From positions 67,590 through 131,589 of the forward strand of contig JACPDA010000005.1 of NCBI GenBank assembly GCA_016184225.1: a stretch of 64,000 nucleotides of DNA, given 5' to 3'. Below the pieces are notes generated by a model. That model did no database searches. It worked only from the letters and a program-made list of their open reading frames with translations, and was not told the origin of the DNA. Below, one piece after another: positions 18,167 to 63,294 of the stretch (the first letter of the stretch is position 1; each line of letters starts with the position of its first letter). Made by a program: the position numbers and the translations under genes. The DNA comes from Candidatus Daviesbacteria bacterium (GTDB lineage Bacteria > Patescibacteriota > Microgenomatia > Daviesbacterales > UBA10151).

Positions 18167-19183
18167 ATGGGAATTATAAAATACACAATTGTTACTTTAG
18201 GTTCTCACTCCGCCCTGCAAATCCTCAAAGGGGCAAAAGATGAAGGCTTTAAAACTGGCGTAGTAGCTACTCCGGATAGATTAACACTTTATAACTCCTA
18301 CAATAATTTTATTGATGAGATTTTAGAAATAGACTCCTGGAAAAATTTCCCCAGATTAGAAAAAGAGTTACTTAAAAGAAATGCCATTATAATTCCACAC
18401 GGCTCGTTTGTGGCATACCTTGGGATGGAACAAAATAAAAATATGAAAGTGGCATATTTTGGCAATAAGAAGGTTTTGGATTGGGAAGAAAACCGCAAAA
18501 TGCAAAGAAACTGGATGGAAGAGGCTAGAGTAAAAGTTCCACACCGGTTTAAAAGGGGAGACAAAATAGACCGACCGGTAATTGTTAAATCATATGGGGC
18601 TTCCGGTGGCAAAGGTTATTTTACTGCCAGAAACCAAAAAGAATTCGACGAAAAGTTAAAAGGTTACAATGAAGAACGATTTATGGTTCAAGAATATGTT
18701 ATTGGGGTGCCGCTCTATTTCCACTTTTTCTATTCGCCTTTGACCAAAAAAGTAGAATTAATGAGTGTTGATAAACGTTATGAAACAAATGTTGACTCAT
18801 TAGGCCGAATTCCGGCTAAAAATCAAAAAGGATTAAATATTGAACCGTCATTTGAGGTGGTGGCAAACATTCCATTGGCTGTTAGGGAGTCTATGATGGC
18901 GGAAGCAGTAGCAATGGCAGAGAGGGTGGTAAAAGCTTCTCAAAAACTTATACCAAGCAAAGGGCTTTTTGGTCCGTTTTGTTTGGAGACAATTATTACC
19001 TCATCTGAGGAAATTTATGTGATAGAAATCTCGGCCAGAATTGTAGCCGGGACAAATTGTTTTATAAATGGATCTCCTTATACTTACTTAAATTATGATG
19101 AACCAATGTCAACAGGAAGACGTATTGCCAGGGAGATAAAGAATGCAATAAACGCAAAGAAGCTTAAGGAGGTGCTGGATTGA
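18167..19183 (+). CDS. purP: FAICAR synthetase, archaeal type (PurP, ATP-grasp, formate-dependent)
   Basis: Strong resemblance to archaeal PurP (…TLGSHSALQILKGAK, IIPHGSFVAYLG, SGGKGYF, FFYSP…VELMSVDKRYETN). Confidence 0.8.
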   Translation: MGIIKYTIVTLGSHSALQILKGAKDEGFKTGVVATPDRLTLYNSYNNFIDEILEIDSWKNFPRLEKELLKRNAIIIPHGSFVAYLGMEQNKNMKVAYFGNKKVLDWEENRKMQRNWMEEARVKVPHRFKRGDKIDRPVIVKSYGASGGKGYFTARNQKEFDEKLKGYNEERFMVQEYVIGVPLYFHFFYSPLTKKVELMSVDKRYETNVDSLGRIPAKNQKGLNIEPSFEVVANIPLAVRESMMAEAVAMAERVVKASQKLIPSKGLFGPFCLETIITSSEEIYVIEISARIVAGTNCFINGSPYTYLNYDEPMSTGRRIAREIKNAINAKKLKEVLD

Positions 19184-20271
19184 AAAATAAACAATATACC
19201 ATTGCTGTTTTAGGTTCTCATTCTGCTTTAGATGTATGCCGTGGGGCTAAGGATTTAGGATTTAAGACACTAGTTATTTGTAAGAAGGGTAGAGAAAAAA
19301 CATACAAAGATTATTTTGCATCTGAAGGGGAACTGGGTTGTGTAGATGAAGTGATTGTGTTGGATGAATTCAAGGATATATTAAGCGAGAAAGTCCAGCA
19401 AGAACTTCTTAAGAGAAATTGTATTTTTATTCCACACAGATCTTTTGAAGTTTACATAAATGACTATAATGCGATTGAGAAAAAGTTTAAGGTGCCGATG
19501 TTCGGCAACAGGTTTTTGCTTAAAGCGGAAGAGCGGGGAGTGAAACCAAACCAGTATGATCTGCTCGACGCTGCCAAGATTCGTTACCCAAAGCAGTATA
19601 AGGATCCCAAGGAAATAGATAGACTTTGTATCGTTAAAGTGTTGGAAAAAGAACGCGGTTTTGAAAGGGCATTTTTCTTGGCCGAAAATTATGAGGACTT
19701 TGTTATGCATGCATCAAATGCAATTTCAGCTAATAGAATTACAAAACAACAATTAGAAAAAGCTGTCATTGAGGAGTTTATTTTTGGGGTGCAAGTTAAT
19801 TTTAATTTCTTTTATGACCCTATTAATAATAGGTTAGAATTAATTGGAACAGATACTAGAAGGCAAACAAATATTGAAGGGCTTATTAAAACTCCCGCTC
19901 CTTACCAGCAATCTATTATGGCAAGAACGCAGATCAAATATGAGGAAGCAGGTCATATTGCCGTTACAGTTTTGGAGTCTATGCTTGAGGATGCATTTGC
20001 CATAGGGGAAAGATTTGTTGAAGCTACTCAGAAGTTGTTTAAACCAGGAGTCATTGGGCCGTTTGGTTTACAAACAGTTATAACCGCCGGCCCGCCCAAA
20101 AAAGAGATTATTGTTTTTGATGTTTCCCCGAGAATGCCGGGATCTCCCGGGATATTGGCCACACCTTACAGTGGATATTTATATGGACAAAATATTTCTA
20201 TGGGAAAAAGAGTAGCCATGGAGATTAAGGAAGCGATTGAAAGAGGTCAGCTGGAAAGGATATTAACTTAA
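19180..20271 (+). CDS. purP: Second PurP-like paralog (FAICAR synthetase family)
   Basis: Same family as the upstream gene (LGSHSALDVCRGAK, FIPHRSF, NFFYDP…ELIGTDTRRQTN), in tandem with a 4-nt overlap. Confidence 0.75.
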   Translation: MKNKQYTIAVLGSHSALDVCRGAKDLGFKTLVICKKGREKTYKDYFASEGELGCVDEVIVLDEFKDILSEKVQQELLKRNCIFIPHRSFEVYINDYNAIEKKFKVPMFGNRFLLKAEERGVKPNQYDLLDAAKIRYPKQYKDPKEIDRLCIVKVLEKERGFERAFFLAENYEDFVMHASNAISANRITKQQLEKAVIEEFIFGVQVNFNFFYDPINNRLELIGTDTRRQTNIEGLIKTPAPYQQSIMARTQIKYEEAGHIAVTVLESMLEDAFAIGERFVEATQKLFKPGVIGPFGLQTVITAGPPKKEIIVFDVSPRMPGSPGILATPYSGYLYGQNISMGKRVAMEIKEAIERGQLERILT

Positions 20272-20272
20272 T

Positions 20273-21802
20273 ATGGAAAAATATGCCTTACTCTCGGTAT
20301 ATAATAAGGAAGGTATATCTGACTTTGCAAAGGTATTAGAGAAGTTGGGATACAAAATTATCTCCACTGGCGGTACTTATGAACAGTTAAAAAAGAACGG
20401 TATTGATGTTACCCCAATTGATGAGATAACCGGTAACCCCAGAGACTCCTTTGACGGCCGGATGAAAACTATTAGTTTTCAAATTGAGTCGGGAATTTTG
20501 TTTGACCGGAGAAATCCTAAGCATGTAGAAGAGGCCCAAAAATTGGGGGTACCGCAAATAAACATTGTGATATGCAACCTTTATCCGTTTGAAGAAAAGC
20601 CTGGCATTGAAACAATCGATGTCGGAGGGCCAACCATGATTAGGGCTGCAGCTAAAAATCATGTAAATGTTTTGGTGGTGGTTAGTCCTGCTGATTATGG
20701 TATGGTGGCAGATGCTTTAGAAAAGGGGAAAGTTACAGAAAAATTAAGGAAAGAATTGGCTGCTAAAGCTTTTTATCATCTATCTTTTTACGATTCTCAA
20801 ATCGGTAACTTTTTCAGTAGCGAGAGGTTTCCCAAAGAACTCACTATACCTCTTAGAAAAACTAATGTTCTCCGCTATGGGGAAAATCCCCATCAAGAAG
20901 GAGCCCTCTATCTTATGCCAAAAACCAATTCTCCTTTTGCAAAATTAAAACACCTTTGGGGAAGGGAACTTTCCGGCACCAACATTGGTGATATTCAAGC
21001 AGGACTGGAAACTGTCAGACAATTTAAGGAACCGGCAGCCGCAGTTATAAAACATTTAAGCCCTTGCGGAATAGCTACCGGCAAAGATGCTTTCGAGGCT
21101 CTGTACCGGGCAACCGAAGCAGACCCTGTTTCCGCATTTGGAGGGGTAGTGGTATTAAATAAGCCCATGGATTTAGAGGCTGCAAAGAATATTGCCACGT
21201 TTAAAAATGAAAGAGAAGGAAATACTGATATTGTGGCAGTTCCATCAATTTCGCCTGATGCTTTGGAATTACTGAAAAAAGTCAGAAAGAGTATGGGAGT
21301 TTATACATTTGGTGAAATTCCAAGGGAAAGAACTGAAAGATGGGACTTAAAATATTTTGCCGGAGCAGTATTACTTCAGGATTTTGATGATGATGTTGAC
21401 AAAAGTTTTAAGGCCTGGAAAGTTGTAACTAGAAATAAACCGACAGAGAAACAACTTGAGCAAATGAAATTTGGTTTTAAAGCAGTGAAAGCTGTCAGGT
21501 CTAATGCCGTGATAGTAATTGATAAAGATATTCCGATGACCCGCGGGATTGGTTCCGGACAAACTTCACGCGTAGGTGCTACCAAGATTGCCCTGGAGCA
21601 AGCAGGAAAATTAGCAAAAGGTGGTATCCTAATAAGTGACAGCTTTTTTCCGTTTGAAGATTCAGTGGAAATGGCAGCAAAATACGGAATCGGAGCCATT
21701 CTGGAGCAAGGGGGTTCTGTTAATGATCAGGCATCTGTGACGGCCGCAGATAAGGCAGGTATCCCGATGGTATTTACCGGAAGGAGGGCATTCAGACACT
21801 AA
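20273..21802 (+). CDS. purH: Bifunctional AICAR transformylase / IMP cyclohydrolase
   Basis: MGS-like N-domain (ALLSVYNKEGI) plus an AICARFT C-domain, about 509 aa. Confidence 0.85.
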   Translation: MEKYALLSVYNKEGISDFAKVLEKLGYKIISTGGTYEQLKKNGIDVTPIDEITGNPRDSFDGRMKTISFQIESGILFDRRNPKHVEEAQKLGVPQINIVICNLYPFEEKPGIETIDVGGPTMIRAAAKNHVNVLVVVSPADYGMVADALEKGKVTEKLRKELAAKAFYHLSFYDSQIGNFFSSERFPKELTIPLRKTNVLRYGENPHQEGALYLMPKTNSPFAKLKHLWGRELSGTNIGDIQAGLETVRQFKEPAAAVIKHLSPCGIATGKDAFEALYRATEADPVSAFGGVVVLNKPMDLEAAKNIATFKNEREGNTDIVAVPSISPDALELLKKVRKSMGVYTFGEIPRERTERWDLKYFAGAVLLQDFDDDVDKSFKAWKVVTRNKPTEKQLEQMKFGFKAVKAVRSNAVIVIDKDIPMTRGIGSGQTSRVGATKIALEQAGKLAKGGILISDSFFPFEDSVEMAAKYGIGAILEQGGSVNDQASVTAADKAGIPMVFTGRRAFRH

Positions 21803-23214
21803 TGAAAGTGCAAAGTGCAAAGTGCAAAGTGCAAAGTTATGATAGTTACCAATCACCATTTTCTTGGAGATATGGATCAGAAAAAATGAGAGAGATATTC
21901 TCAGAAGAGAAGAAATATAAACTTTGGAGAAAGATTTGGGTAGCTCTTGCAAAAGCACAAGCAAAAGAAGGTTTGGTATCAAAAGAAGAACTGGCAGACC
22001 TGGAAAAAAATCAAGACAACATAGATATCGAACGGATTTGGGAAATTGAAAAAGATACCTGGCATGACACCGTAGCGGCAATAAAAGAATTTGCTGAGAA
22101 AGCCAAAATCGGCGGCGGCAAAATACACCTCGGTGCCACTTCCATGGATATTTCCGATAATGCTGAAACTATTAGGATTAGGGAAGCCTTGGATATAGTT
22201 GAAAAAAGACTCGTAGCTTTGCTACTCGCGCTTTCTTCGAAAGTAAAAAAATATGCTAACTTTCCCTGTATGGGGTATACCCATCTGCAGCCGGCAGAAC
22301 CAACAACCTTAGGATATAGATTTGCTTTCTACGCCCAGGATCTTTTAATGGATCTGGAACTTTTAAGATTTGTTAAGAAGAATTTAAAGAGTAAAGGTTT
22401 AAAGGGCGCAGTCGGAACATCAGCCAGTTATGTTAAATTGTTGGATAGGAAAAAAGCAGAAGAGATGGAAGTTAGGATTTTAAGGGAGTTAGGGGTAGAA
22501 GCATTTGAAATTACCAATCAAACTGCGTCCAGAAAGATAGAATTTTGGGTAGCCAGCTTACTCGCGGGAGTTGCACAGTCCTTGAATAAATTTGCCTTTG
22601 ATTTAAGGATTATGCAGTCACCCGGGTTTGGTGAATGGCAGGAGCCGTTTGGAGTTTTGCAGGTTGGTTCATCCGCAATGCCTTTTAAGAAAAATCCTAT
22701 TAAAGCAGAACAAATTTGTTCTTTGTCCAGGCTGGTGGTGAATTTATCAAAGACTGCCTGGGATAATGCTTCCATGATGTTACTTGAGCGGACTCTGGAT
22801 GATTCGGCTAACAGAAGAGTAGTAATTCCGGAAATGTTTTTGGCAATTGATGAAATGCTAAATTCTACCGCAAATATTGTTGAAGGATTAATTGTAAATG
22901 ACAAACAAATAATGAGAAATTTGGAAAAATATTGGCCTTTTTCTGCAACAGAAGGAATTATTCTGGAAGCAGTAAAACAGGGGGCAGACAGACAAAAAAT
23001 GCATGAGGCGCTCAGAGAAATTGCCATGAGAGCGTGGAAGTCTATCCAAGAAGGGAATCCAAATCCAATACAGGATTTATTAGAAGAAAATTCCACTATT
23101 AAACAGTACTTAAAACCAATAGAAATAATAGAAGTTCTGGATGCAAAAAATCATGTTGGTAATGCAAAAGAAAAAGCTTTGACTTTGGCGGATCAAATTG
23201 ATAGATTGACATAA
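21802..23214 (+). CDS. purB: Adenylosuccinate lyase
   Basis: Fumarate-lyase family with a PurB N-terminus (SWRYGSEKMREIF). The first codons are a heptanucleotide tandem repeat (MKVQSAKCKVQS). Confidence 0.85.
   Translation: MKVQSAKCKVQSYDSYQSPFSWRYGSEKMREIFSEEKKYKLWRKIWVALAKAQAKEGLVSKEELADLEKNQDNIDIERIWEIEKDTWHDTVAAIKEFAEKAKIGGGKIHLGATSMDISDNAETIRIREALDIVEKRLVALLLALSSKVKKYANFPCMGYTHLQPAEPTTLGYRFAFYAQDLLMDLELLRFVKKNLKSKGLKGAVGTSASYVKLLDRKKAEEMEVRILRELGVEAFEITNQTASRKIEFWVASLLAGVAQSLNKFAFDLRIMQSPGFGEWQEPFGVLQVGSSAMPFKKNPIKAEQICSLSRLVVNLSKTAWDNASMMLLERTLDDSANRRVVIPEMFLAIDEMLNSTANIVEGLIVNDKQIMRNLEKYWPFSATEGIILEAVKQGADRQKMHEALREIAMRAWKSIQEGNPNPIQDLLEENSTIKQYLKPIEIIEVLDAKNHVGNAKEKALTLADQIDRLT
21804..21838 (+). 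repeat. Heptanucleotide tandem repeat (CAAAGTG x about 5) within the first codons of purB
   Basis: gaaagtgcaaagtgcaaagtgcaaagtgcaaagtt. Confidence 0.8.
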
Positions 23215-29447: not shown

Positions 29448-30064
29448 ATGATAAAACCGGATTTTTTTATCAGATCCTCCAATTGGTTGTGGTGGAAAGG
29501 ATGAAGATGGGCATTTCTCCATACTCTGCCCTTTGTATTTTCCCAAATAAACCACACAATTCGAAAAAGTAGGCTTCCGGAATCCATCGTCAAAATTAAA
29601 GTGCCGTTTTCCTTAAGCACTCTACGAATTTCTTTTAAACACTTATCCGGTTTTTCAACATGTTCGATTGTTTCATAAAAAAGAATTAAGTCAAAAAAGG
29701 TTTTTTTATAAGGTATCCTCTCGGCTGATGCAATTTTAAAATCTATCCCGGGATAGGTTTTCTTTGCGGAATCGATAGCCTTATCGTAGACGTCTACACC
29801 ATAATAGGAAGCGCCGGGGAATGCTTTGGCAATTTCCGAGACCATAAAACCCGAGGCACAGCCGACATCCAGGCAGTTATTAAATTCCAGATCTTTAATA
29901 ATTTTTTTGGCAAGCTTAATTTTAGTATCGTGCCAGAGCCACTGGAAGAAATTATTTTTGACTCCATTTTGATAATAATTTACCGGGACCTTGCTCCAAG
30001 TGTTATATAGCCTGTGGTTTTGCATATTTTTGGACCGTGAAGCCGCCGATAGTTTTTTCTTCAA
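29345..30064 (-). CDS. Class I SAM-dependent methyltransferase
   Basis: Motif I (LDVGCASG) and a post-I acidic residue. An alternative start near 30025 is possible. Confidence 0.7.
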   Translation of the reverse strand: MKKKLSAASRSKNMQNHRLYNTWSKVPVNYYQNGVKNNFFQWLWHDTKIKLAKKIIKDLEFNNCLDVGCASGFMVSEIAKAFPGASYYGVDVYDKAIDSAKKTYPGIDFKIASAERIPYKKTFFDLILFYETIEHVEKPDKCLKEIRRVLKENGTLILTMDSGSLLFRIVWFIWENTKGRVWRNAHLHPFHHNQLEDLIKKSGFIIQDKIFSFLGMEVTFVLSNSSKRSGPTLPPGLTL

Positions 30065-31559
30065 TTAATTCGCCTTTTTCCTTTGCCCAGGTTCTGCCTA
30101 TATTTTTGTAAATCTCGGGGATGCGGTTGGTTTCCGAGATTAACATATAGAAATATTTTTCCTTGTTTGTTGTTTTAGGAAGCAGGTCATAAGGGTGGAG
30201 TTGATCTCCGCCCAGCCAGCCGGGTACATATCCAAAGTTTTCTTTACCGTACCAATTATAAAGATATGCCCACATGCCGTTATAGTAAAGCGGATAGGTG
30301 ACTGCGTTAATAGCAAACGGCAGCCCAGCTGCACTTTTATAAGTATAATCAACTACCTGCAATTGATAATTCATATAGGAAGTGGAGTCATATATGGAAT
30401 TAAACAGCTGATAAGCTTTAGACGGCCTGTTCAGTATTATGGTTGCATTGCTTGAAACTATTGCCAGTATGGCTAACAGGATTAAAAACCTAAATTTTAG
30501 TTTTGATATGGCATAGCCGGAGATAAGCGCTATAGCAGGAGGCAGTCCTATTAAAAACCAGGGTTTTTGATGATACCCCAAAATCAGCGTGACAACAGGA
30601 GAGAAAAGATATAGCAGCAGGAAGTAGATTGCAGATTTTTCCTGTTTTGCCAGTTTAGGTCTAAACAGGAAATACAGGGTAATTAGGATTATGATTGCTG
30701 CTATAAAAATGCCAAGGTCCGGCCTGGTAGGAAATAAATTATTTGAAAAATTTATCCCAAAATCTTGTAAAAACAATTGCAATCTTTGGCCATAAGGCAA
30801 TTTTGTTTCACCAAAGTTTGAAGAAAAATTAAGCAGGGTTTTAACTCCGGCAAAGTTTAGTTTTATTTCGGTCAAAATCATAGTTGCGGTAGCGGCTGCA
30901 AAGGCGGCAAGAGAAAGCAAAGATAACTTTAAGGTTAAAATCTGGGGCTTAAAAATGAGCAAATAAATTATAAATACCGGAATAAGGTATAGAAAAGTAA
31001 GATCTGCCTGTATGGACAGACCCAAACTTACGGCGGAAAGTATTAGTCCCCATCCTCTCTTTATAACAATAAGCCAAAGCCCCAGGTAAAAAAGGGGGAC
31101 TGTAAAAATTGTCACCGTATCAATGGTTAACCAGTTTGAGAATTTAATAAATTCAAAAGAAGCGGCTATGATAATTGCCGAAAGAATCCCCGGTAATACC
31201 TTTTTGAACATTAACCAGGAAAGGACAAAGATTACAAATAAGGTGGCAGCATTGAAGAAGCTATTCCAGTAGGCGCTTGCCAGCGGGCTGCCGTTGCCGG
31301 CAAGAAAGGGAATCAGATTGTAGTAATAATAGAATACTCCGTGATGGATTCGGGGGTCGCCATAAATTGCCCGTCCAATAATCGGGAGCTCGTGATCAAC
31401 GGCAATTTTGTATGTATAGAATAAGTCTTCATACTGGTCGAAATCTAAAACAATGTTACCCCCTTTAATATTTTCATGCCTTAACCAAAAACCAAAAATA
31501 AAAGTGCAAAGTAAAATTAAAAACACAAGTAATTTGCTTTTTGGGATAAACTTAAACAC
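30003..31559 (-). CDS. Polytopic membrane protein, putative GT-C fold glycosyltransferase (ArnT/PMT-like)
   Basis: More than 10 predicted TM segments and an aromatic-rich N-terminal loop; assignment by architecture only. Confidence 0.45.
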   Translation of the reverse strand: MFKFIPKSKLLVFLILLCTFIFGFWLRHENIKGGNIVLDFDQYEDLFYTYKIAVDHELPIIGRAIYGDPRIHHGVFYYYYNLIPFLAGNGSPLASAYWNSFFNAATLFVIFVLSWLMFKKVLPGILSAIIIAASFEFIKFSNWLTIDTVTIFTVPLFYLGLWLIVIKRGWGLILSAVSLGLSIQADLTFLYLIPVFIIYLLIFKPQILTLKLSLLSLAAFAAATATMILTEIKLNFAGVKTLLNFSSNFGETKLPYGQRLQLFLQDFGINFSNNLFPTRPDLGIFIAAIIILITLYFLFRPKLAKQEKSAIYFLLLYLFSPVVTLILGYHQKPWFLIGLPPAIALISGYAISKLKFRFLILLAILAIVSSNATIILNRPSKAYQLFNSIYDSTSYMNYQLQVVDYTYKSAAGLPFAINAVTYPLYYNGMWAYLYNWYGKENFGYVPGWLGGDQLHPYDLLPKTTNKEKYFYMLISETNRIPEIYKNIGRTWAKEKGELIEEKTIGGFTVQKYAKPQAI

Positions 31560-38977: not shown

Positions 38978-40378
38978 ATGAAACTTAAGAATTTCATTTT
39001 TCTTATTGCAACATTCATATCATTTTTGATAGGGGCCCAGGTATCTCCGGCAGTTTTTGGTGCAACGCCCACACAGTATGGCTTTACATTTCCAGTTGGC
39101 GAGCTGAATAACTGTGCAACTGTGGCAGAATGCGGAAATTACTGTGAGAAAGACGGTAATCTTCCGGCGTGCATGGCATTTGTGAAAAAGTACAAAATTA
39201 CCAAAGATGATGTATTAACATTCACTATTGATGAACTGGGTAATTGTCAGATGGGTTCTGATTGCCGCAATTTTTGCAACCGTGACGAAAATATTACCAA
39301 ATGCATTGATTTTGCCGATAAATATGACCTGCTTTCTACCAGCAATCTTGAACTGGCGCAGAAATTTGCCAAAGCAGTTGGTTCCGGAGGTGGGCCGGGG
39401 GGCTGCAGGAGCCTTGAGCAGTGTGACCGCTATTGTGACATAAGTGAACATACCAACGAATGTCTTGACTATGTGGGCAAGAAGGATTTATTACCACGTA
39501 ATGAATTGGCACAAGTTCGCAAAGTGGCAGAGGGTTTTAGACAGGGAATAGAAACCCCGGGTAAGTGTCGTGATTACACGGAGTGCAATGTTTATTGTAC
39601 TGATTCTAGCCACTCTAACGAGTGCGGAGTTTATGCTGTAAAGGTTGGTTTTATCACAACCGAGGAGGCAGAACAGGCCAAAAAATATGGCGGAACCGGT
39701 CCTGGAGGTTGTAAATCAGAGCAAGAATGTAGCGCTTTTTGTCAACAGCCATATAATCAGAGAGTCTGCTTAAGTTATGCAAACGAACATAATATAAAAG
39801 TAGATTTTAAAGGACCCGGCGGTTGTAGTGATATTTCATCCTGCACATCTTACTGTACTAAAAGTAAGTCTGATCCAGAGTGTCAAAAGTACGCTAGTCA
39901 ATACCAAGGATTTAAAGGGCCTGGCGGGTGTGAGGATGAAGCCTCCTGCAAAACTTATTGTCAGGCTAATCCTGCTGATGCGGAATGTAAACAATATGCC
40001 GGTCAATATGGCGGATTTTCCGGACCTGGAGGGTGTAGTGATGTAGGATCTTGTACTGCCTATTGTAAAGATCACTATCAAGATCAAGAATGTCAAAAAT
40101 ACTCAAGCCAGTATGGTGGAGGATTTTCCGGGCCTGGCGGGTGTAATTCAGAAAGCTCATGTAAAGCTTACTGCACTGCCAACTCTGGGGATGCAGCCTG
40201 TAAACAATATGCCGGTCAATATGGCGGATTTTCCGGACCTGGTGGGTGTACGGATGAGGCTTCTTGTACCTCTTACTGTAAGTCAAACCCCAAAGATTCA
40301 GCTTGTGCCCCATATGTTGGCCAGTATAAAGATCAATACCAACAGCAAAATCAGCAACAACAACCTCAACCACAATAG
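38978..40378 (+). CDS. Secreted cysteine-rich tandem-module protein (about 10 modules of GPGGC-x5-C-x3-C-x8-C…QYGGF, Q-rich tail)
   Basis: Signal peptide; about 30-aa modules with 4 Cys each repeated head-to-tail, ending QQQNQQQQPQPQ. Confidence 0.6.
   Translation: MKLKNFIFLIATFISFLIGAQVSPAVFGATPTQYGFTFPVGELNNCATVAECGNYCEKDGNLPACMAFVKKYKITKDDVLTFTIDELGNCQMGSDCRNFCNRDENITKCIDFADKYDLLSTSNLELAQKFAKAVGSGGGPGGCRSLEQCDRYCDISEHTNECLDYVGKKDLLPRNELAQVRKVAEGFRQGIETPGKCRDYTECNVYCTDSSHSNECGVYAVKVGFITTEEAEQAKKYGGTGPGGCKSEQECSAFCQQPYNQRVCLSYANEHNIKVDFKGPGGCSDISSCTSYCTKSKSDPECQKYASQYQGFKGPGGCEDEASCKTYCQANPADAECKQYAGQYGGFSGPGGCSDVGSCTAYCKDHYQDQECQKYSSQYGGGFSGPGGCNSESSCKAYCTANSGDAACKQYAGQYGGFSGPGGCTDEASCTSYCKSNPKDSACAPYVGQYKDQYQQQNQQQQPQPQ
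39380..40335 (+). repeat. Tandem roughly 90-bp coding repeats inside the Cys-rich protein gene
   Basis: Recurrent ggacctggnggntg…caatatggcggattttccgg blocks seen directly. Confidence 0.6.
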
Positions 40379-44017: not shown

Positions 44018-44097
44018 TATAGAATAGTGACTAGTCGCTAGAGTCTAGAGTCAAGTAATTATTTTCTAGACTCTAGATTCTAGACACTTGACTCTAA
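44018..44097. repeat. Intergenic repeat family 4 (ATAGTGACTAG…GAGTCAAG…TCTAGACTCTAGA…ACTCTA), copy A after rpsR
   Basis: About 80 bp, partly palindromic and rich in tctaga/gagtc. Confidence 0.6.
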
Positions 44098-48300: not shown

Positions 48301-48552
48301 ATGGTAACTAAAGAAAATGGGGAAAAATTGGAAAGGGTTATTTCTTTAAAGGAGACATTAGGGGCAGAATTAAATAGAATTAAAAGGGAGAAGGAAATGG
48401 GCGTACCATTGGAAGATTCCTTTGAAAGCTTACTGAGAGTAGTTGAAGTATTAGTTGGGCAGATCAAAGACGAAAATCCATTTGGTCAAATATCGAAGGT
48501 AGACCCACTGAAGCCGCGGGTTGGTGGGTTCATACCGCCGGAACATCATTGA
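48301..48552 (+). CDS. Hypothetical small protein (83 aa)
   Basis: ORF only; its end overlaps prmC on the opposite strand. Confidence 0.25.
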   Translation: MVTKENGEKLERVISLKETLGAELNRIKREKEMGVPLEDSFESLLRVVEVLVGQIKDENPFGQISKVDPLKPRVGGFIPPEHH

Positions 48553-49279
48553 TAATAAGTACCCTTTGTTTTTTGGCAAGGTCGGTTTTGACCTCTACTT
48601 TTGCTTGGGGAAAATATTTTTGGGCTTCATTTGCTGCCAGTTCTCCGTGGGTATAGTCAATTTCTCCGATAATCAATTTAGGTTTCCAACCTACACTCCA
48701 GGAGTGTAAGTTCGAATTCACTCCTGGAGTGGAAAGCTGTTTGATCTGTTGGAAAAGTTTCCGGTAAAGTTCAAAGCCATCTTCTCCGCCGTCCAAGGCA
48801 ACATGTGGTTCAAAGTCTTTGACTGAAGAGTCTAAATAAGGAATCCTGGCAGAAGGGATGTAAGGTAAGTTAGTGACAATGACTAGGTTACAGGTTTCAG
48901 GGTACAGGTTACAGTTTAACCCGGAAAGCAAATTACTTTTTAAAAAAGTGATTTTATCTTCAACTCCATGGAGTTTGGCATTTTGTCTGGCTACTTTTAA
49001 AGCTTTCTGGGAAATATCTGAAGCAATAATAGTTACGTTTACACCCTTGGGGTGGAGGCTTAGGTTTTTGGCAATGGAAATGGCAATGTTGCCGGAGCCG
49101 GTGCCAAGGTCTAAAATGAGGTTACAGGTTTCAGGGTACAGGTTACAATAATTTAAAACTTCATCTACTAAAAGTTCTGTTTCCGGGCGGGGGATTAGAA
49201 CATCAGGAGTGACTTTGAAACGTAATTTGTAAAATTCAACCCAACCTTTAATGTACCCAGAGGGCTTTGATGATGTCAT
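48530..49279 (-). CDS. prmC: Release-factor glutamine N5-methyltransferase
   Basis: SAM motif (LDLGTGSG) and an NPPY-type motif (TNLPY). Carries two in-frame copies of a 29-bp repeat ([10 protein letters not shown]). Confidence 0.8.
48886..48914. repeat. Repeat family 3 (GGTTACAGGTTTCAGGGTACAGGTTACAG), in-frame in prmC
   Basis: Translated on the minus strand as [10 protein letters not shown]. Confidence 0.7.
49120..49147. repeat. Family 3 second copy, in-frame in prmC
   Basis: ggttacaggtttcagggtacaggttaca, translated [10 protein letters not shown]. Confidence 0.7.
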
Positions 49280-50605: not shown

Positions 50606-50697
50606 GCATAGTATAGCAAAAATAGTGACTAGAGTCGAGAGTCAAGAGTCTAGACTTAAAAATTCCTAAACTCTAGAACCTAGCAACTAGACTCTAT
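50606..50697. repeat. Family 4 copy B between eamA and rpmE
   Basis: Shares the atagtgactag / gagtcaag / tctagac / actctaga / actcta blocks with copy A. Confidence 0.6.
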
Positions 50698-51625: not shown

Positions 51626-51631
51626 ATTGAG

Positions 51632-52045
51632 TTAAGAGTTACGAGTTAAGAGTGCAGAATTATTTCTGGATTTCTTCAGAATCGTAACCAGTATTCTTAT
51701 TATTTCATCATTTTCCTTTAAAAGTAAACCTAACTTCTTAGAGGGAATTAGTTGTGATCGGGAAAGAATCGTTAACCAATAATAGGTTTCCCTTGCTTCT
51801 TTTAAGGAGATGTTGACTAAGTGTATAAAATCTTTTCTGGAGGCAGCACTTTGAGCTTCTTGTAAGTTTGCTCCAATAGATGTTCCGGACCTTACTACTT
51901 GTGATGCTAAAGCATAACCAGCAGGAGTTTTCGGTAAGGAGTTAACCATGTAAACAATTCTTACTGCAAATTCTATGGATCTTTCTGCGATTCCAATTCT
52001 TAACTCTTCACTCTGCACTCTGAATTCTCCTGATGGCTTCGTCAA
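51632..52045 (-). CDS. Four-helix-bundle protein (23S rRNA intervening-sequence protein family)
   Basis: Family-typical sequence (…SIGANLQEAQSAASRKDFIHLVNISLKEARETYYWL…). The N-terminal region overlaps the hisS 3' end by about 37 nt. Confidence 0.65.
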   Translation of the reverse strand: MTKPSGEFRVQSEELRIGIAERSIEFAVRIVYMVNSLPKTPAGYALASQVVRSGTSIGANLQEAQSAASRKDFIHLVNISLKEARETYYWLTILSRSQLIPSKKLGLLLKENDEIIRILVTILKKSRNNSALLTRNS

Positions 52046-55443: not shown

Positions 55444-56169
55444 TTATTTTTTCTTTCCAGTGGGAGTGGCAGACTGGGTGGCTACCTTTTTGGGTTTTAT
55501 TATTCCGCCTTGAGGTATCACATAAACAAATCCAGCTTCGAAAATTTCATTCTTATTTTTGCTTCCCGTGAGTATCACAAAATCTTTTAACTTTACCGTC
55601 GCTGAGGTGGGCAAACTGACGGCTACATTTTGGAAGTTTTTATCCTTGAGGGTAATTAGCTCGTCAGAGATAGAGATTACCTGGCCCCAAAAGTAAGTTT
55701 TTGGTTCTAAGTTAGGAGTTGGCAGTAAGATAATTTTTTTAGCTGTCAGTACGCCTGTTTCGTCAATATCGCCCAAAGCCGCAATATAGTCATCTTCCGC
55801 AATTGCCTTCAGAGAGAATTTAGTTTTTCCTTTAATTTTGCTTTCAAAAACAGTATCCTGATTGATGCTGATTATTTTGGGTCCGGATGCGGCTGCTAAA
55901 GTTAGGGAAGTTTCCGAACTTGCTTTAACCATGCCTGTGTAAGCTTTATCTTTCAGTTTGTGGTTAACCTCTTGTTTTAATTTAGCGGCCTTTGAAGCAA
56001 TTTCCTTTTTTAGTTCCTCCAGTTTGGCCTTAATGTCGGCAGAAGGGGTGGAATCAGCAGCATAGGTAGGGTATAGGGTATAGGGTATAGGGTATAGGAA
56101 AACAAAAAATACAAAAAATAAGGCAATTATTTTACTAGTGGCTAACCCCCAAACCCTAAACCCTCTCAT
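55444..56169 (-). CDS. Hypothetical secreted/anchored protein (241 aa)
   Basis: N-terminal hydrophobic segment. The N-terminal codons include a heptanucleotide tandem repeat (YPIPYTLYPTY). Confidence 0.4.
   Translation of the reverse strand: MRGFRVWGLATSKIIALFFVFFVFLYPIPYTLYPTYAADSTPSADIKAKLEELKKEIASKAAKLKQEVNHKLKDKAYTGMVKASSETSLTLAAASGPKIISINQDTVFESKIKGKTKFSLKAIAEDDYIAALGDIDETGVLTAKKIILLPTPNLEPKTYFWGQVISISDELITLKDKNFQNVAVSLPTSATVKLKDFVILTGSKNKNEIFEAGFVYVIPQGGIIKPKKVATQSATPTGKKK
56063..56098. repeat. Heptanucleotide tandem repeat (GGGTATA x about 4.5) inside the N-terminal coding region of ORF 55444..56169
   Basis: taggtagggtatagggtatagggtatagggtatagg. Confidence 0.8.
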
Positions 56170-56618
56170 AGTTTTTCCTTCGAATAATACACTGTCCGCT
56201 CCGCTGACCTGGAATCTCCTGTTGAATCAAAGGTTGCAGCAGTGATCTTATTTACCCCTTCGTCTAAACTTAAAACAGTGGAAAAGGAGCCATCAGGTTT
56301 TGATTTAATGACCGAATCAAAATTTTCTGTGGAGATTAAAACCAAACTCCCCGGCCCGGTTTTGCCGGAAACCAATACTTCCGGCGAATAAAATAAACTA
56401 TCCTGCTCAGGCTGGTCAAGATCCAGCCGCAGAGTCTTAGGGGCAGTGGTAATCGGCCCGGCCAAAAAGGGGCCTTTGGGTTTTTGATACTGGATATTTA
56501 AAATGTAATAAAGTCCTGCAAGAAATATTAAACCAAAACTTAAAAGTAAAATCTGGGAAATGAAAAACTGTTTGGTGGAGAGTTTTTTGGTTAATTTCAT
56601 TTGACAGCATTTTAACAT
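56166..56618 (-). CDS. Hypothetical membrane-anchored protein (150 aa)
   Basis: TM segment; 4-nt overlap with the downstream gene. Confidence 0.35.
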   Translation of the reverse strand: MLKCCQMKLTKKLSTKQFFISQILLLSFGLIFLAGLYYILNIQYQKPKGPFLAGPITTAPKTLRLDLDQPEQDSLFYSPEVLVSGKTGPGSLVLISTENFDSVIKSKPDGSFSTVLSLDEGVNKITAATFDSTGDSRSAERTVYYSKEKL

Positions 56619-58818: not shown

Positions 58819-58902
58819 TGCCGAGGGAGGGAGTCGAACCCTCATGATCTTTAGGACCAAAGGTTTTTGAGACCTTCGCGTCTGCCATTCCGCCACCTCG
58901 GC
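58819..58902 (-). tRNA. tRNA-Leu (anticodon CAA), type II with a long variable arm; CCA not encoded
   Basis: The reverse complement folds into a cloverleaf: acceptor GCCGAGG/CCUCGGC, anticodon loop CUCAAAA, T-arm GAGGG-UUCGACU-CCCUC, discriminator A. Confidence 0.8.
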
Positions 58903-59590: not shown

Positions 59591-62263
59591 ATGAATAAAT
59601 CTACAAAAAATGAAGTCAGGCTTCCGGTGCATGTTAAGCCTGAGCGGTACAGGATTATGCTCCGGCCGGATCTGGAGGGGTTTACATTTTACGGCGAAGA
59701 AACAATTTTTTTGGTTTTAGAAAAGCCCACCAAACAAATTACCCTGCATGCTGCTGAGCTGGAGATAGAATCGGCAGAATTTATACATGGTAACAAAGAG
59801 GTATGGGCTGGGAGGATTAATTATGATAAAAAAGCGGAAACTGCTACATTTACTTTTGCTAAAAATATTCAAAAAGGCAAAGGACAATTAAAGCTTGCTT
59901 TTAAGGGAATCTTGAATGATAAAATGCGGGGCTTTTACCGTTCCCGCTATGAAGTGAGTGGAGTATCAAAGCATCTGGCTACTACCCAGTTTGAATCAAC
60001 TGATGCCAGGAGGGCTTTTCCCAGCTTTGATGAACCCGCTCAAAAGGCTGTTTTCGATGTGACTTTAGTGGTTCCTGCCAAGACTGTGGCTATCTCCAAC
60101 ACCATTGAATCTAACATCCGAGAACATGAAAGCGGTTACAAGGTAATAGAGTTTGCCCCAACCCCGAAAATGTCTACTTATCTTTTAGCCTTTATTGTGG
60201 GGGAGTTTGAGAGTGTAGAAGTGCAAAGTGCAAAGGGCAAAGTGATAAGGGTTTTTACCACACCGGGTAAAAAAGAACAAGCCAGATTTGCCCTTGATGT
60301 AGCCGGAAAATGCTTGGATTTCTATGAACAATACTTTGGTATCTCTTACCCTTTGCCGGTGTTGGATCTTATTGCAATACCTGATTTTGCTGCCGGGGCC
60401 ATGGAAAACTGGGGAGCAGTGACATATCGCGAATCTTTGCTGTTAATTGATGAGGAGGCTTCCTCCACTGCCAATAAACAATGGGTGGCTTTAGTGATTG
60501 CCCATGAGCTGGCTCACCAGTGGTTTGGCAATTTAGTCACTATGGAGTGGTGGACCCACCTTTGGTTAAATGAAGGTTTTGCCTCATTTATTGAATTCTT
60601 GGCTATTGACCATATTTTCCCGGAGTGGGATATCTGGACCCAATTTGTAGGGAGCGAAATGGGTGAAGCTTTCTCGCTGGACGGCTTAAAAAACACCCAC
60701 CCGATTGAGGTGGAGGTGGGCCATCCGGCCGAGATTTCCGAGATTTTTGATAAGGTCAGCTATTCCAAAGGAGCCTCAATTCTGCGTATGCTTATGTCTT
60801 ATCTGGGGGAAAAAGATTTTCAAAAAGGGTTGCAATTTTATCTTAAAAAACATGCTTATGGAAATGCGGAGACCCAGGATTTGTGGAAAGCATTGGAAGA
60901 AGTTTCCGGGAAACCTGTTGGCAAGCTGATGAAAAACTGGACCTCAAAGCCCGGACATCCGGTGATAAGGTTACAGTCAACAGGCAGCAGGCTACAGTTA
61001 ACACAAAGCAGGTTTTTCTCCTCTCCAATTTCTAAAAGAAAGACGAAAGATGGTGCTGTCTGGAGTATTCCTATCACTGTCATTCTGGGGAGTTCTGCAA
61101 GGCAGAACGACTCCAGAATCGATTCTGGACAAGCCAGAATGACTAATCTATTAATGAATAAAAAATCCATGACTATTTCAGGAATTAAAGATAACGAGTG
61201 GATTAAATTAAATGCCGGGGAGGCGTCATTAGTTAGAGTTGATTATCCGCAGGAATATCTCAAGAAGCTGGAAGAGGCGGTTAAGAATGGAAAACTGCCT
61301 GCAGTGGACAGGTTGGGCCTAATCAGAGATTCTTTCTCTTTGGCAGAGTCAGGTCAAAGCCCAACCACTTTATCTTTGGAGCTGACTCAAAGTTACATGG
61401 GTGAAGAAGATTATACTGTTTGGGCTGAGCTGACGGGAAAACTGCTGCAGCTTGATTCTCTTTTAGCTCTGGAACCATTTTATCCGGATTTCAAAAAATA
61501 CGGCATAAAGATTTATCAAGATATAGGGGGTAAGCTAGGCTGGAAAGCAAGAAAAGGAGAAAAGCATACAGATTCCCTGCTGCGGGGTATGGTTTTAAAT
61601 ATGCTGGGAGGGTTTGGAGATGGGGAGACTATAAAGGTGGCTCAGGAATTATTTAGAGCTTATGTAGTACGTCATTCTGGGGAGCGCAGCGACTCCAGAA
61701 TCAAAGGGGGGGATTCTGGACAAGCCAGAATGACAAGTAGTCACGGCATTCATCCTGATTTAAAGGGAGTTGTTTACAATTTGGTGGCGGAAAACGGTGG
61801 AAAAAAAGAATTCGATACTTTGATGAAGATGTACAAGCAAGAGGAAAATCAACAGGAAAAAGATCGGATTGGCCGGGCTTTGGGGAAGTTTAAAATTAAA
61901 GCCCTTCTTTCTAAAACCCTGGATTTTTCTATTTCCAAGCATGTGAGATTCCAAAACAGTCTGCAAATTATTGCAGCTGTTTGGGCTAATCCGGTCGGCC
62001 GTTATCTGGCCTGGGAGTTTGTAAAAAAGAATTGGAAATTGTTAAAAGATAGGTATGCAGGGGGCCATTATTTTACCAAAGTTTTTGGACCGGCCGGAAG
62101 CTTTACCAAAAAAGTTGATGCCAAAGATATTGAATCCTTTGTCAAGAAAAATCCTGTCCCGGAAGCCAAAAGAACCATTGCCCAAGCCTTGGAACAGATT
62201 TATTCCAATGCAGAGTGGCTAAAAAGGGATAGACAGAAAATCAAAGATTTTCTGTTAAGATAA
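59591..62263 (+). CDS. pepN: Aminopeptidase N (M1 family)
   Basis: GAMEN and HELAHQW…E zinc motifs. Carries two in-frame palindromic repeat inserts (SSARQNDSRIDSGQARMT; RHSGERSDSRIKGGDSGQARMTS). Confidence 0.9.
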   Translation: MNKSTKNEVRLPVHVKPERYRIMLRPDLEGFTFYGEETIFLVLEKPTKQITLHAAELEIESAEFIHGNKEVWAGRINYDKKAETATFTFAKNIQKGKGQLKLAFKGILNDKMRGFYRSRYEVSGVSKHLATTQFESTDARRAFPSFDEPAQKAVFDVTLVVPAKTVAISNTIESNIREHESGYKVIEFAPTPKMSTYLLAFIVGEFESVEVQSAKGKVIRVFTTPGKKEQARFALDVAGKCLDFYEQYFGISYPLPVLDLIAIPDFAAGAMENWGAVTYRESLLLIDEEASSTANKQWVALVIAHELAHQWFGNLVTMEWWTHLWLNEGFASFIEFLAIDHIFPEWDIWTQFVGSEMGEAFSLDGLKNTHPIEVEVGHPAEISEIFDKVSYSKGASILRMLMSYLGEKDFQKGLQFYLKKHAYGNAETQDLWKALEEVSGKPVGKLMKNWTSKPGHPVIRLQSTGSRLQLTQSRFFSSPISKRKTKDGAVWSIPITVILGSSARQNDSRIDSGQARMTNLLMNKKSMTISGIKDNEWIKLNAGEASLVRVDYPQEYLKKLEEAVKNGKLPAVDRLGLIRDSFSLAESGQSPTTLSLELTQSYMGEEDYTVWAELTGKLLQLDSLLALEPFYPDFKKYGIKIYQDIGGKLGWKARKGEKHTDSLLRGMVLNMLGGFGDGETIKVAQELFRAYVVRHSGERSDSRIKGGDSGQARMTSSHGIHPDLKGVVYNLVAENGGKKEFDTLMKMYKQEENQQEKDRIGRALGKFKIKALLSKTLDFSISKHVRFQNSLQIIAAVWANPVGRYLAWEFVKKNWKLLKDRYAGGHYFTKVFGPAGSFTKKVDAKDIESFVKKNPVPEAKRTIAQALEQIYSNAEWLKRDRQKIKDFLLR
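61079..61143. repeat. Family 2 copy, in-frame in pepN (variant left arm)
   Basis: gtcattctggggagttctgcaaggcagaacgactccagaatcgattctggacaagccagaatgac. Confidence 0.75.
61671..61734. repeat. Family 2 copy, in-frame in pepN (near-perfect palindrome)
   Basis: gtcattctggggagcgcagcgactccagaatcaaagggggggattctggacaagccagaatgac. Confidence 0.8.
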
Positions 62264-63154: not shown

Positions 63155-63243
63155 ATTAACCTAATTACTAATTGACCTAATTTCTAAATAATGTCTAATG
63201 ACTTAATAACCAAATTTTAGACATTAGATCATTGGTGCTTGTT

Positions 63244-63271
63244 TAGAAATTAGAAATTAAAAATTAGAAAT
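63244..63271. repeat. Heptanucleotide tandem repeat (TAGAAAT x 4) in the galU promoter region
   Basis: tagaaattagaaattaaaaattagaaat, followed by an extended -10 TGtTATACT and then the ATG. Confidence 0.7.
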
Positions 63272-63294
63272 TCTGCTCATGTTATACTTACACT

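Follow-up and report, generated by a model that had tools for sequence, protein, structure and literature searches.

Why should purB, a gene for an essential step of purine synthesis, open on a tandem repeat whose unit is seven nucleotides long and hence out of register with the genetic code? The question arises at one locus of a 64,000-nt stretch of a Candidatus Daviesbacteria genome assembly (contig JACPDA010000005.1, positions 67,590 to 131,589 of the forward strand; hereafter the window, with position 1 its first letter), where the gene for adenylosuccinate lyase (ADSL) runs from its start codon straight into four perfect copies of AAAGTGC and most of a fifth. A first-pass annotation, made by a model from the letters alone, had offered two answers: a slipped-strand on/off switch or a strain-variable N-terminus. 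We think it reasonably probable that the array is a translated coding microsatellite in a dispensable tail, generated by slippage in a lineage prone to 7-nt repeats and filtered by selection so that only frame-preserving copy numbers pass.

The array occupies positions 21805-21837 on the forward strand and is reported by Tandem Repeats Finder as a single tract with unit AAAGTGC, period 7, 4.7 copies, 100% matches and a length of 33 nt, that is, (AAAGTGC)x4 followed by AAAGT. Across positions 21780-21880 the order is ...GGAAGGAGGGCATTCAGACAC, TAATG, four AAAGTGC units, AAAGT and then TATGATAGTTACCAATCACCATTTTCTTGGAGATATGGA. The first-pass annotation had described about five copies of CAAAGTG at 21804-21838. 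The repeat stands, AAAGTGC being a rotation of CAAAGTG, but the count of five does not, there being four full units plus AAAGT, and the span is corrected to the one given above. It was right that the repeat supplies the first codons of purB (residues 2-12, KVQSAKCKVQS) and that the gene overlaps purH stop to start in TAATG.

Could such a tract be an assembly artefact or chance low-complexity sequence? The window belongs to a short-read metagenome-assembled genome, and repeats are prone to mis-assembly. However, a 33-nt array fits within one read, independent contigs from the Logan assemblies of six sequencing runs carry identical flanks and 30 nt of the array, and orthologous arrays are found in at least eight other species, from separate studies. 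Chance fares no better. Among the short-period tracts of the window the purB array is the longest perfect one; in 200 first-order Markov simulations of the window, the maximum length of a perfect period-7 tract was 15 nt on average and 20 nt at the highest, and the analytic expectation for 26 consecutive lag-7 matches puts the array at about 3e-11 per window. The probability of an artefact or chance origin is practically nil, and for the existence of the array this explanation is refuted. Note that the exact unit number (4.7) is a single-assembly value.

What part of the protein does the array encode? PurB scores 403.2 bits against TIGR00928 (cutoff 326.2), with profile positions 3-430 covering residues 22-457, and in a comparison with the PDB it matches ADSL structures at E 1e-95, with homology from residue 12 onwards. 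In the structure alignment, the query segment SYDSYQSPFSWRYGS pairs with SPDSYRSPLASRYAS of human ADSL, and the substrate-site motif S-P-x-x-x-R-Y is present, SPFSWRYGS being aligned with SPLASRYAS of the human enzyme. An AlphaFold2 model built with 40 homologues reaches a predicted local distance difference test score (pLDDT) of 82 and a predicted template modelling score of 0.84, with residues 1-10 below 50 and without secondary structure. Because the TIGR00928 match begins at residue 22, the PDB homology at residue 12 and the pLDDT falls below 50, we place the array in a tail outside the conserved fold. Judged by alignment and model together, it codes exactly the non-conserved, predicted-disordered N-terminal tail, residues 2-12. 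Among the 120 closest homologues listed, 84 have 13-15 residues before the invariant RY, while 11 have 22, matching the window. Since most orthologues do without it, the tail appears to be dispensable.

The window protein is identical to NCBI MBI2196901.1 (Candidatus Daviesbacteria), and its next relatives share at most 82% identity. Scans of genomes and metagenomes returned no same-species contig (best match 82%), and exact-protein look-ups returned no record for the window PurB, the product starting at GTG 21808, or the proteins of 55444-56169(-) and 56166-56618(-). As an observation in its own right, this PurB is far closer to eukaryotic ADSL (human, E 1e-95) than to the PurB of Bacillus (1e-57) or Thermotoga (1e-43), a likeness that includes the extended N-terminal DSY.SP motif.

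Whether the array is translated at all depends on where translation begins. In relatives that lack an array, an ATG at or adjoining the purH stop, 13-14 nt past GGAGG, is the sole possible start; because they have no alternative there, ATG 21802 is the orthologous start in the window. An AGGAGGG in the 3' end of purH, which would presumably act as a Shine-Dalgarno (SD) sequence, precedes it, and this GGAGG-N13/14-ATG arrangement is conserved in relatives. The in-frame start candidates of purB are ATG 21802, GTG 21808 and GTG 21829, with none further before ATG 21886. The gene pair thus described has the anatomy of a coupled pair, namely an overlapping stop and start and an SD within the preceding gene, although coupling is predicted only. 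Translational coupling through TAATG or ATGA junctions, with which the locus shares the purH TAA/purB ATG overlap and the SD-like GGAGG in the purH 3' end, is ordinary in itself; the oddity of purB is a slippage-prone array beginning 1 nt past the coupled start codon. We considered that the array might keep the start region unstructured and rejected the idea: the mean unpaired probability around the ATG (0.483) resembles that of controls with shuffled arrays (0.528 +/- 0.06) or random 33-mers of coding sequence (0.467 +/- 0.08), and accessibility has no trend with unit number. At the purH|purB junction no internal promoter and no terminator are predicted, and no Rfam family is found. A separate peculiarity of the same cluster (18167-19183, 19180-20271, 20273-21802) is that two PurP paralogues lie directly 5' of a full-length bifunctional PurH; PurP is a formate-dependent, archaeal-type synthetase of 5-formamidoimidazole-4-carboxamide ribonucleotide, so that PurP and PurH together are an apparent redundancy at the formylation of 5-aminoimidazole-4-carboxamide ribonucleotide.

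How does the array behave across species? We compared the purH|purB junction DNA of 85 distinct loci (alleles in Table 1). Most Daviesbacteria relatives have a junction without an array. Orthologous coding arrays are found in at least 11 species, all with 1.7 or 4.7 units, and not one of the 85 junctions has 2.7, 3.7 or 5.7. Combining 11 alleles known at the DNA level with five known from protein only, all 16 are in frame and fit 4.7 or 1.7 units. The units of most relatives, AAAGTCA and AAAATCA, contain no start codon and none lies between array and core, and the arrays are therefore translated there too. Since the copy numbers found are exactly three units apart (21 nt, 7 residues), we conclude that the frame is under purifying selection. 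One candidate exception, a call starting at M29 (P0083) that might have been a frameshifted OFF allele, was rejected: a missed TTG start overlaps the purH TGA.

Units are uniform within a species and differ between species at up to 3 of 7 positions (AAAGTGC versus AAAATCA). Such homogeneity exceeds what independent point mutation in four units would give, so that arrays must contract and re-expand, a concerted evolution by slippage. On a neighbour-joining tree of the PurB core (a rough one, without support values), leaders with an array, a short array or none are interleaved even in close pairs (L003/L005, L092/L091, L006/L090), and turnover is therefore fast relative to speciation. The variable N-terminus of the first-pass annotation is thus borne out at the level of species, relatives having 1.7 or 4.7 units, other units or no array.

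Alleles of 0.7-8.7 AAAGTGC units simulated in silico at purB make the constraint explicit. The ATG frame is kept only at 1.7, 4.7 and 7.7 units; at all other values the ATG opens peptides of 8-33 amino acids (26 and 15, respectively, for 3.7 and 5.7 units), in agreement with the earlier statement that one unit gained or lost frameshifts the open reading frame (ORF) from ATG 21802. The suggestion to look for alternative in-frame starts also proved fruitful. Every AAAGTGC contains a GTG and the last full unit is fixed relative to the core, so that an in-frame GTG (21829 in the window) is retained as long as one full unit or more remains. It could be used as a backup start, for instance by re-initiation after purH termination 27 nt upstream. 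Such a GTG would render the window allele partly frameshift-proof and the array, therefore, a dimmer at most and no clean switch. For an on/off switch of an essential step we find no direct support: 16 of 16 relatives' alleles are in frame, the tract is short at 4.7 units and purB is a housekeeping gene.

Contigs of the same population were obtained solely from Logan, by exact look-ups of the neighbouring proteins PurH and PurE, in runs SRR12113419, SRR12113425, SRR12113428, SRR12113429, SRR12113433 and SRR4343430. Logan assemblies are de Bruijn graphs with k=31 (PMC12424806). In all six runs the contigs match the window with 100% identity as far as the purB array and for part of its length, and no contig spans it. 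All four left contigs end at 21834 (the ATG plus 30 nt of array), and right contigs begin at 21808 or 21809 (29-30 nt of array, then the flanking T at 21838). In simulated k=31 graphs, the 4.7-unit allele alone yields a spanning unitig and mixtures with 3.7- or 1.7-unit alleles break elsewhere; the observed ends are reproduced only by a pure AAAGTGC tract of at least 38 nt (at least 5.7 units, alone or mixed) or by a second locus with at least 5 units. Two controls are available. In the relative L187 a Logan contig spans the 4.7-unit array, a partial control given that one unit is degenerate; at a TAGGGTA x4.6 array elsewhere in the window, contigs from 4 runs end inside the array at 56093, a position that no simple copy-number mixture reproduces. 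Arrays of this kind break k=31 assemblies and can mislead the calling of start codons.

The purB array does not stand alone. Counting period-7 arrays of at least 3 copies, we find 17.2 per 100 kb in the window, 5.0-5.6 in Daviesbacteria-like loci, 2.0 in other Microgenomates and 0.5-1.3 in other phyla, with no comparable excess at periods 5, 6 and 8-12. Of the 12 arrays in the window, eight are found no more than 75 nt from an ORF boundary (2.7 expected, P=0.0014). A rule that arrays inside ORFs have stop-free units holds for perfect arrays and is unclear for degenerate ones, and was not used. A second junction of the pur cluster is also affected: at purP1|purP2 (window equivalent 19180), at least seven relatives (L001, L012, L013, L016, L029, L030 and L049) have A-rich heptamer arrays, 2.3-7.7 units in length, which run from the purP1 stop codon and contain the purP2 start, ATG or GTG, within one unit. 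In L029 and L049 these arrays are built of AAAGTGC, the window's own purB unit. The window's purP1|purP2 junction is without an array, a TTG start overlapping the TGA stop. In view of this lineage enrichment and of arrays at other sites, the purB repeat is one of a family of 7-nt arrays.

Periodicity of this kind need not involve a change in length. The related string that the first-pass annotation had placed in pepN near 60225 is indeed there (Table 1); an origin as an in-frame insertion was rejected, the region aligning without gaps to human puromycin-sensitive aminopeptidase, and on this alignment the heptamer periodicity evidently arose without length change. Within purB itself, about 1050-1100 nt into the gene (window ~22860-22900), a scattered set of at least 12 relatives (among them L003, L004, L009, L012, L015, L019, L023, L024, L030 and L101) code LTINDKRITKN by 7-nt AACGATA-type units (AACGATA AACGATA AACGAAT AACGAAA); the window and close relatives have LI(I/V)N(E/D)(R/K)... 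at the site, for example LIINERKINKN in relatives, of equal length and without periodicity.

With what known systems can the array be compared? Coding microsatellites and variable N-terminal extensions are known in bacterial proteins and form no curated family. They share with the purB array a repeat-encoded, low-complexity, disordered tail outside the catalytic fold, variable in length and with its frame kept by selection. The purB unit has 7 nt and not 3 or 6. A slip by one unit therefore always costs the frame, neutrality is left to steps of three units, and the constraint on the frame becomes visible (1.7 versus 4.7). This makes the locus a natural experiment in microsatellite evolution under reading-frame constraint, in which the joint action of slippage and selection can be seen directly.

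Judged by analogy, the closest described counterpart of the purB array family is the class of short tandemly repeated repetitive (STRR) sequences of cyanobacteria, functionally unexplained tandem arrays with a 7-bp unit that occur, among other places, between hupS and hupL and have been proposed to act on transcript stability or translational coupling (PMC2670836). Shared features are the heptanucleotide unit, many dispersed arrays, lineage-specific abundance and a few recurring unit families. The frequent siting of STRR sequences between co-transcribed genes may have a parallel in the 8 of 12 window arrays near an ORF boundary and in the spacer arrays of L006, L049 and L110, although the purB array itself lies within an ORF. 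The taxa differ, filamentous cyanobacteria there and Patescibacteria/Daviesbacteria here, as do the units (A-rich AAAGTGC, AAAGTCA and AAAATCA, and AATTTCT). Unlike STRR sequences, several Daviesbacteria arrays, that of purB included, have been absorbed into ORFs and translated, with copy number changing in three-unit steps. Literature searches on heptanucleotide repeats in the Candidate Phyla Radiation (CPR)/Patescibacteria found no description. Seven-nucleotide tandem arrays, hitherto described as a hallmark of filamentous cyanobacteria, are abundant in at least one CPR lineage.

Under the explanation we favour, Daviesbacteria genomes would have a lineage-wide propensity to form arrays of about 31-33 nt with 7-nt units, most of them at gene boundaries, and the purB array, falling just past the orthologous start, would be translated into an 11-residue Lys/Gln/Ser-rich tail outside the ADSL fold. 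Replication slippage, the presumable generating mechanism, would gain and lose units over evolutionary time and homogenise them within species, with selection retaining only copy numbers in frame with the ATG: 1.7, 4.7 and, in principle, 7.7, in steps of 21 nt or 7 residues. In practice this would give an N-terminus of variable length, with no switch built for the purpose; should the window allele slip out of frame, the in-frame GTG of its last full unit may cushion the effect. Several points weigh against this explanation. It presumes that the tail is neutral and that slippage occurs in the living population. To get from 1.7 to 4.7 units by 7-nt slips, an array must cross out-of-frame states that are tolerated or rescued, which is exactly what a switch model predicts. 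The Logan contig ends suggest longer alleles, possibly out of frame, in the same population, although a second AAAGTGC locus would explain them equally. Finally, different species share units between junctions that are not homologous, and arrays begin 0-4 nt from the upstream stop codon in three kinds of junction; together these two regularities hint at something beyond neutral slippage.

The array might instead be a contingency locus, or rather a dimmer: a one-unit slip would shift the purH-coupled ATG out of frame, and PurB would fall to the level afforded by the SD-less GTG inside the array. The tract has the requisite anatomy, being a perfect repeat within the ORF (codons 2-12) with a unit length not divisible by 3 and with the simulated 3.7- and 5.7-unit alleles yielding only short ATG peptides; concerted evolution shows that it slips, the 1.7-to-4.7 transitions imply viable out-of-frame intermediates, and in six runs no Logan contig spans the array, the breaks matching a tract of at least 5.7 units. 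Phase variation by heptanucleotides is also established, for example in pglE of N. meningitidis, where a perfect 7-nt tandem repeat likewise lies in the 5' part of the ORF and a change by one unit shifts the ATG frame (PMC7157529). Loci of the pglE type, however, are surface, glycosylation or restriction-modification genes, whereas purB is a housekeeping gene with only 4.7 units, no out-of-frame allele among 16 related ones and a GTG within the unit that keeps an in-frame start. Similar arrays sit in spacers, other ORFs and other junctions where a switch is implausible; the Logan breaks would follow equally well from an in-frame allele of 7.7 units or from another AAAGTGC locus with 5 or more units; and dimming is no general feature, start codons being absent from the units of most relatives (AAAGTCA, AAAATCA). 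On balance, we regard a dimmer as unlikely. Were it true, purB would have heritable, reversible high and low states in a symbiont sometimes able to salvage purines, and with true out-of-frame alleles it would stand out as an episymbiont gene of central metabolism subject to phase variation, with a bearing on how CPR bacteria balance de novo nucleotide synthesis against salvage.

Alternatively, arrays of about 31-33 nt could be cis-acting RNA or DNA elements at operon junctions, with the peptide tail incidental. They recur exactly at stop/start junctions, as illustrated by the purP1|purP2 arrays that run from the stop codon and embed an ATG or GTG; at purH|purB, at least eight species have them as a coding leader, and L006, L049 and L110 as an untranslated spacer of AATTTCT units; their lengths are alike, non-homologous junctions have units in common, ORF boundaries have more arrays than expected, and a comparable proposal exists for the STRR sequences between hupS and hupL (PMC2670836). 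Yet the orthologous site shows no conservation of unit sequence and is free of arrays in most Daviesbacteria relatives, predicted start-region accessibility is unchanged by the array, the junction has no promoter, terminator or Rfam signal, and purifying selection against coding disruption would equally give boundary enrichment. We consider a functional junction element rather improbable. Length-preserving periodicity (pepN and the internal purB site), unit recurrence and the out-of-frame steps from 1.7 to 4.7 units leave room for an active or functional array system. In its most elaborate form, this would be an STRR-like system of Daviesbacteria, in which an active process creates or preserves, at operon junctions and from the upstream stop onwards, arrays of about 31-33 nt made from a small common stock of units, and in which units containing a start codon (the GTG of AAAGTGC, the ATG of AAATGTC) permit re-initiation independent of copy number. 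Arrays could then expand and contract freely, tuning purB expression or N-terminus length within a population. We judge this proposal to be a long shot.

Table 1. Features of the purH|purB junction, related heptamer tracts in the window, and array alleles at the orthologous junction of relatives.
Feature or allele	Positions	Strand	Details
purH	20273-21802	+	NF002049, 528 bits; stop overlaps purB start
SD-like AGGAGGG	21782-21788	+	in purH 3' end (codons GRR), 13-14 nt 5' of purB ATG
TAATG	21800-21804	+	purH TAA (21800-21802) overlapping purB ATG (21802-21804)
purB (adenylosuccinate lyase), 470 aa	21802-23214	+	begins MKVQSAKCKVQSYDSYQSPFSWRYGS; TIGR00928, 403 bits
Second in-frame GTG	21808-21810	+	inside array
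In-frame GTG	21829-21831	+	last full repeat unit; without SD of its own; potential backup start
Conserved PurB core start, YDSYQSPFSWRYGS	21838-21879	+	SPFSWRYGS almost invariant among the 120 homologues listed
Next in-frame ATG (M29)	21886-21888	+	downstream of conserved RY motif; a start here would lose SPFSWRYGS
Third AAAGTGCAAAGT occurrence (1.7 units)	31501-31512	+	near 5' end of minus-strand ORF 30003-31559
Perfect TAGGGTA x4.6 (coding strand TACCCTA)	56067-56098		gene 55444-56169(-); codes LYPIPYTLYPTY after hydrophobic N-terminal segment
AGGGTTT-like array	56142-56164		gene 55444-56169(-); directly after ATG, which overlaps the upstream gene's stop by 4 nt
Imperfect AAGTGCA x3.7 in pepN (ORF 59591-62263)	60219-60244	+	89% matches; frame as purB leader (EVQSAKGKV)
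Window (WIN): (AAAGTGC)4 AAAGT			4.7 units, coding leader
L085-87: (AAAATCA)4 AAAAT			4.7 units, coding leader; perfect, identical across three assemblies
L001: AAAGTCA AAAATCA AAAGTCA AAAGTCA			4.7 units, coding leader
L013 and L187: AAAGTCA-type			4.7 units, coding leader
L003: AAAACTC AAAACTT AAATGTC AAATGTC			4.7 units, coding leader
L092 and L113			4.7 units, coding leader
L081 (closest relative): AAAGTTA AAAGT			1.7 units, coding leader
L084: AAAGTCA AAAGT			1.7 units, coding leader
L030: AAAACTC AAAAC			1.7 units, coding leader
L006, L049, L110: AATTTCT x4.3-4.4, unit containing TAA			untranslated spacer between purH stop and purB ATG

Further repeats in the window deserve brief mention. 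The ARAGT core ARAGTNNARAGT has 10 matches at 5 window loci against 0.85 expected; as a general motif it was rejected, the relatives' matches being mostly conserved coding sequence (EKKFKV). An intergenic TTAGAAA x4.3 at 63243-63272 is the reverse-complement rotation of AATTTCT, the unit of the purH-purB spacer in L006, L049 and L110. Two arrays of AGAGTTA/AGAGTGC-type units, inverted relative to each other (51629-51653 and 51998-52021), flank the ORF 51632-52045(-), which belongs to the family of 23S rRNA intervening-sequence proteins (PF05635, E 3e-23); the pair might mark an inserted cassette. Two intergenic arrays, at 44038-44096 (CTAGAGT/TCTAGAC, partly palindromic) and 50631-50654 (AGAGTCN), are both preceded by ATAGTGACTAG and may constitute a repeated regulatory or structural element. 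In the methyltransferase ORF 48530-49279(-), a 29-nt degenerate AGGTTAC block appears twice, at 48885-48918 and 49119-49147, 234 nt apart. The sole Rfam match at gathering threshold in the window is a tRNA gene at 58819-58902(-). Lastly, the ORF 38978-40378 contains a 108-nt tandem repeat at 39983-40269 (2.7 copies, 64% matches) that is probably a repeat at the protein level.

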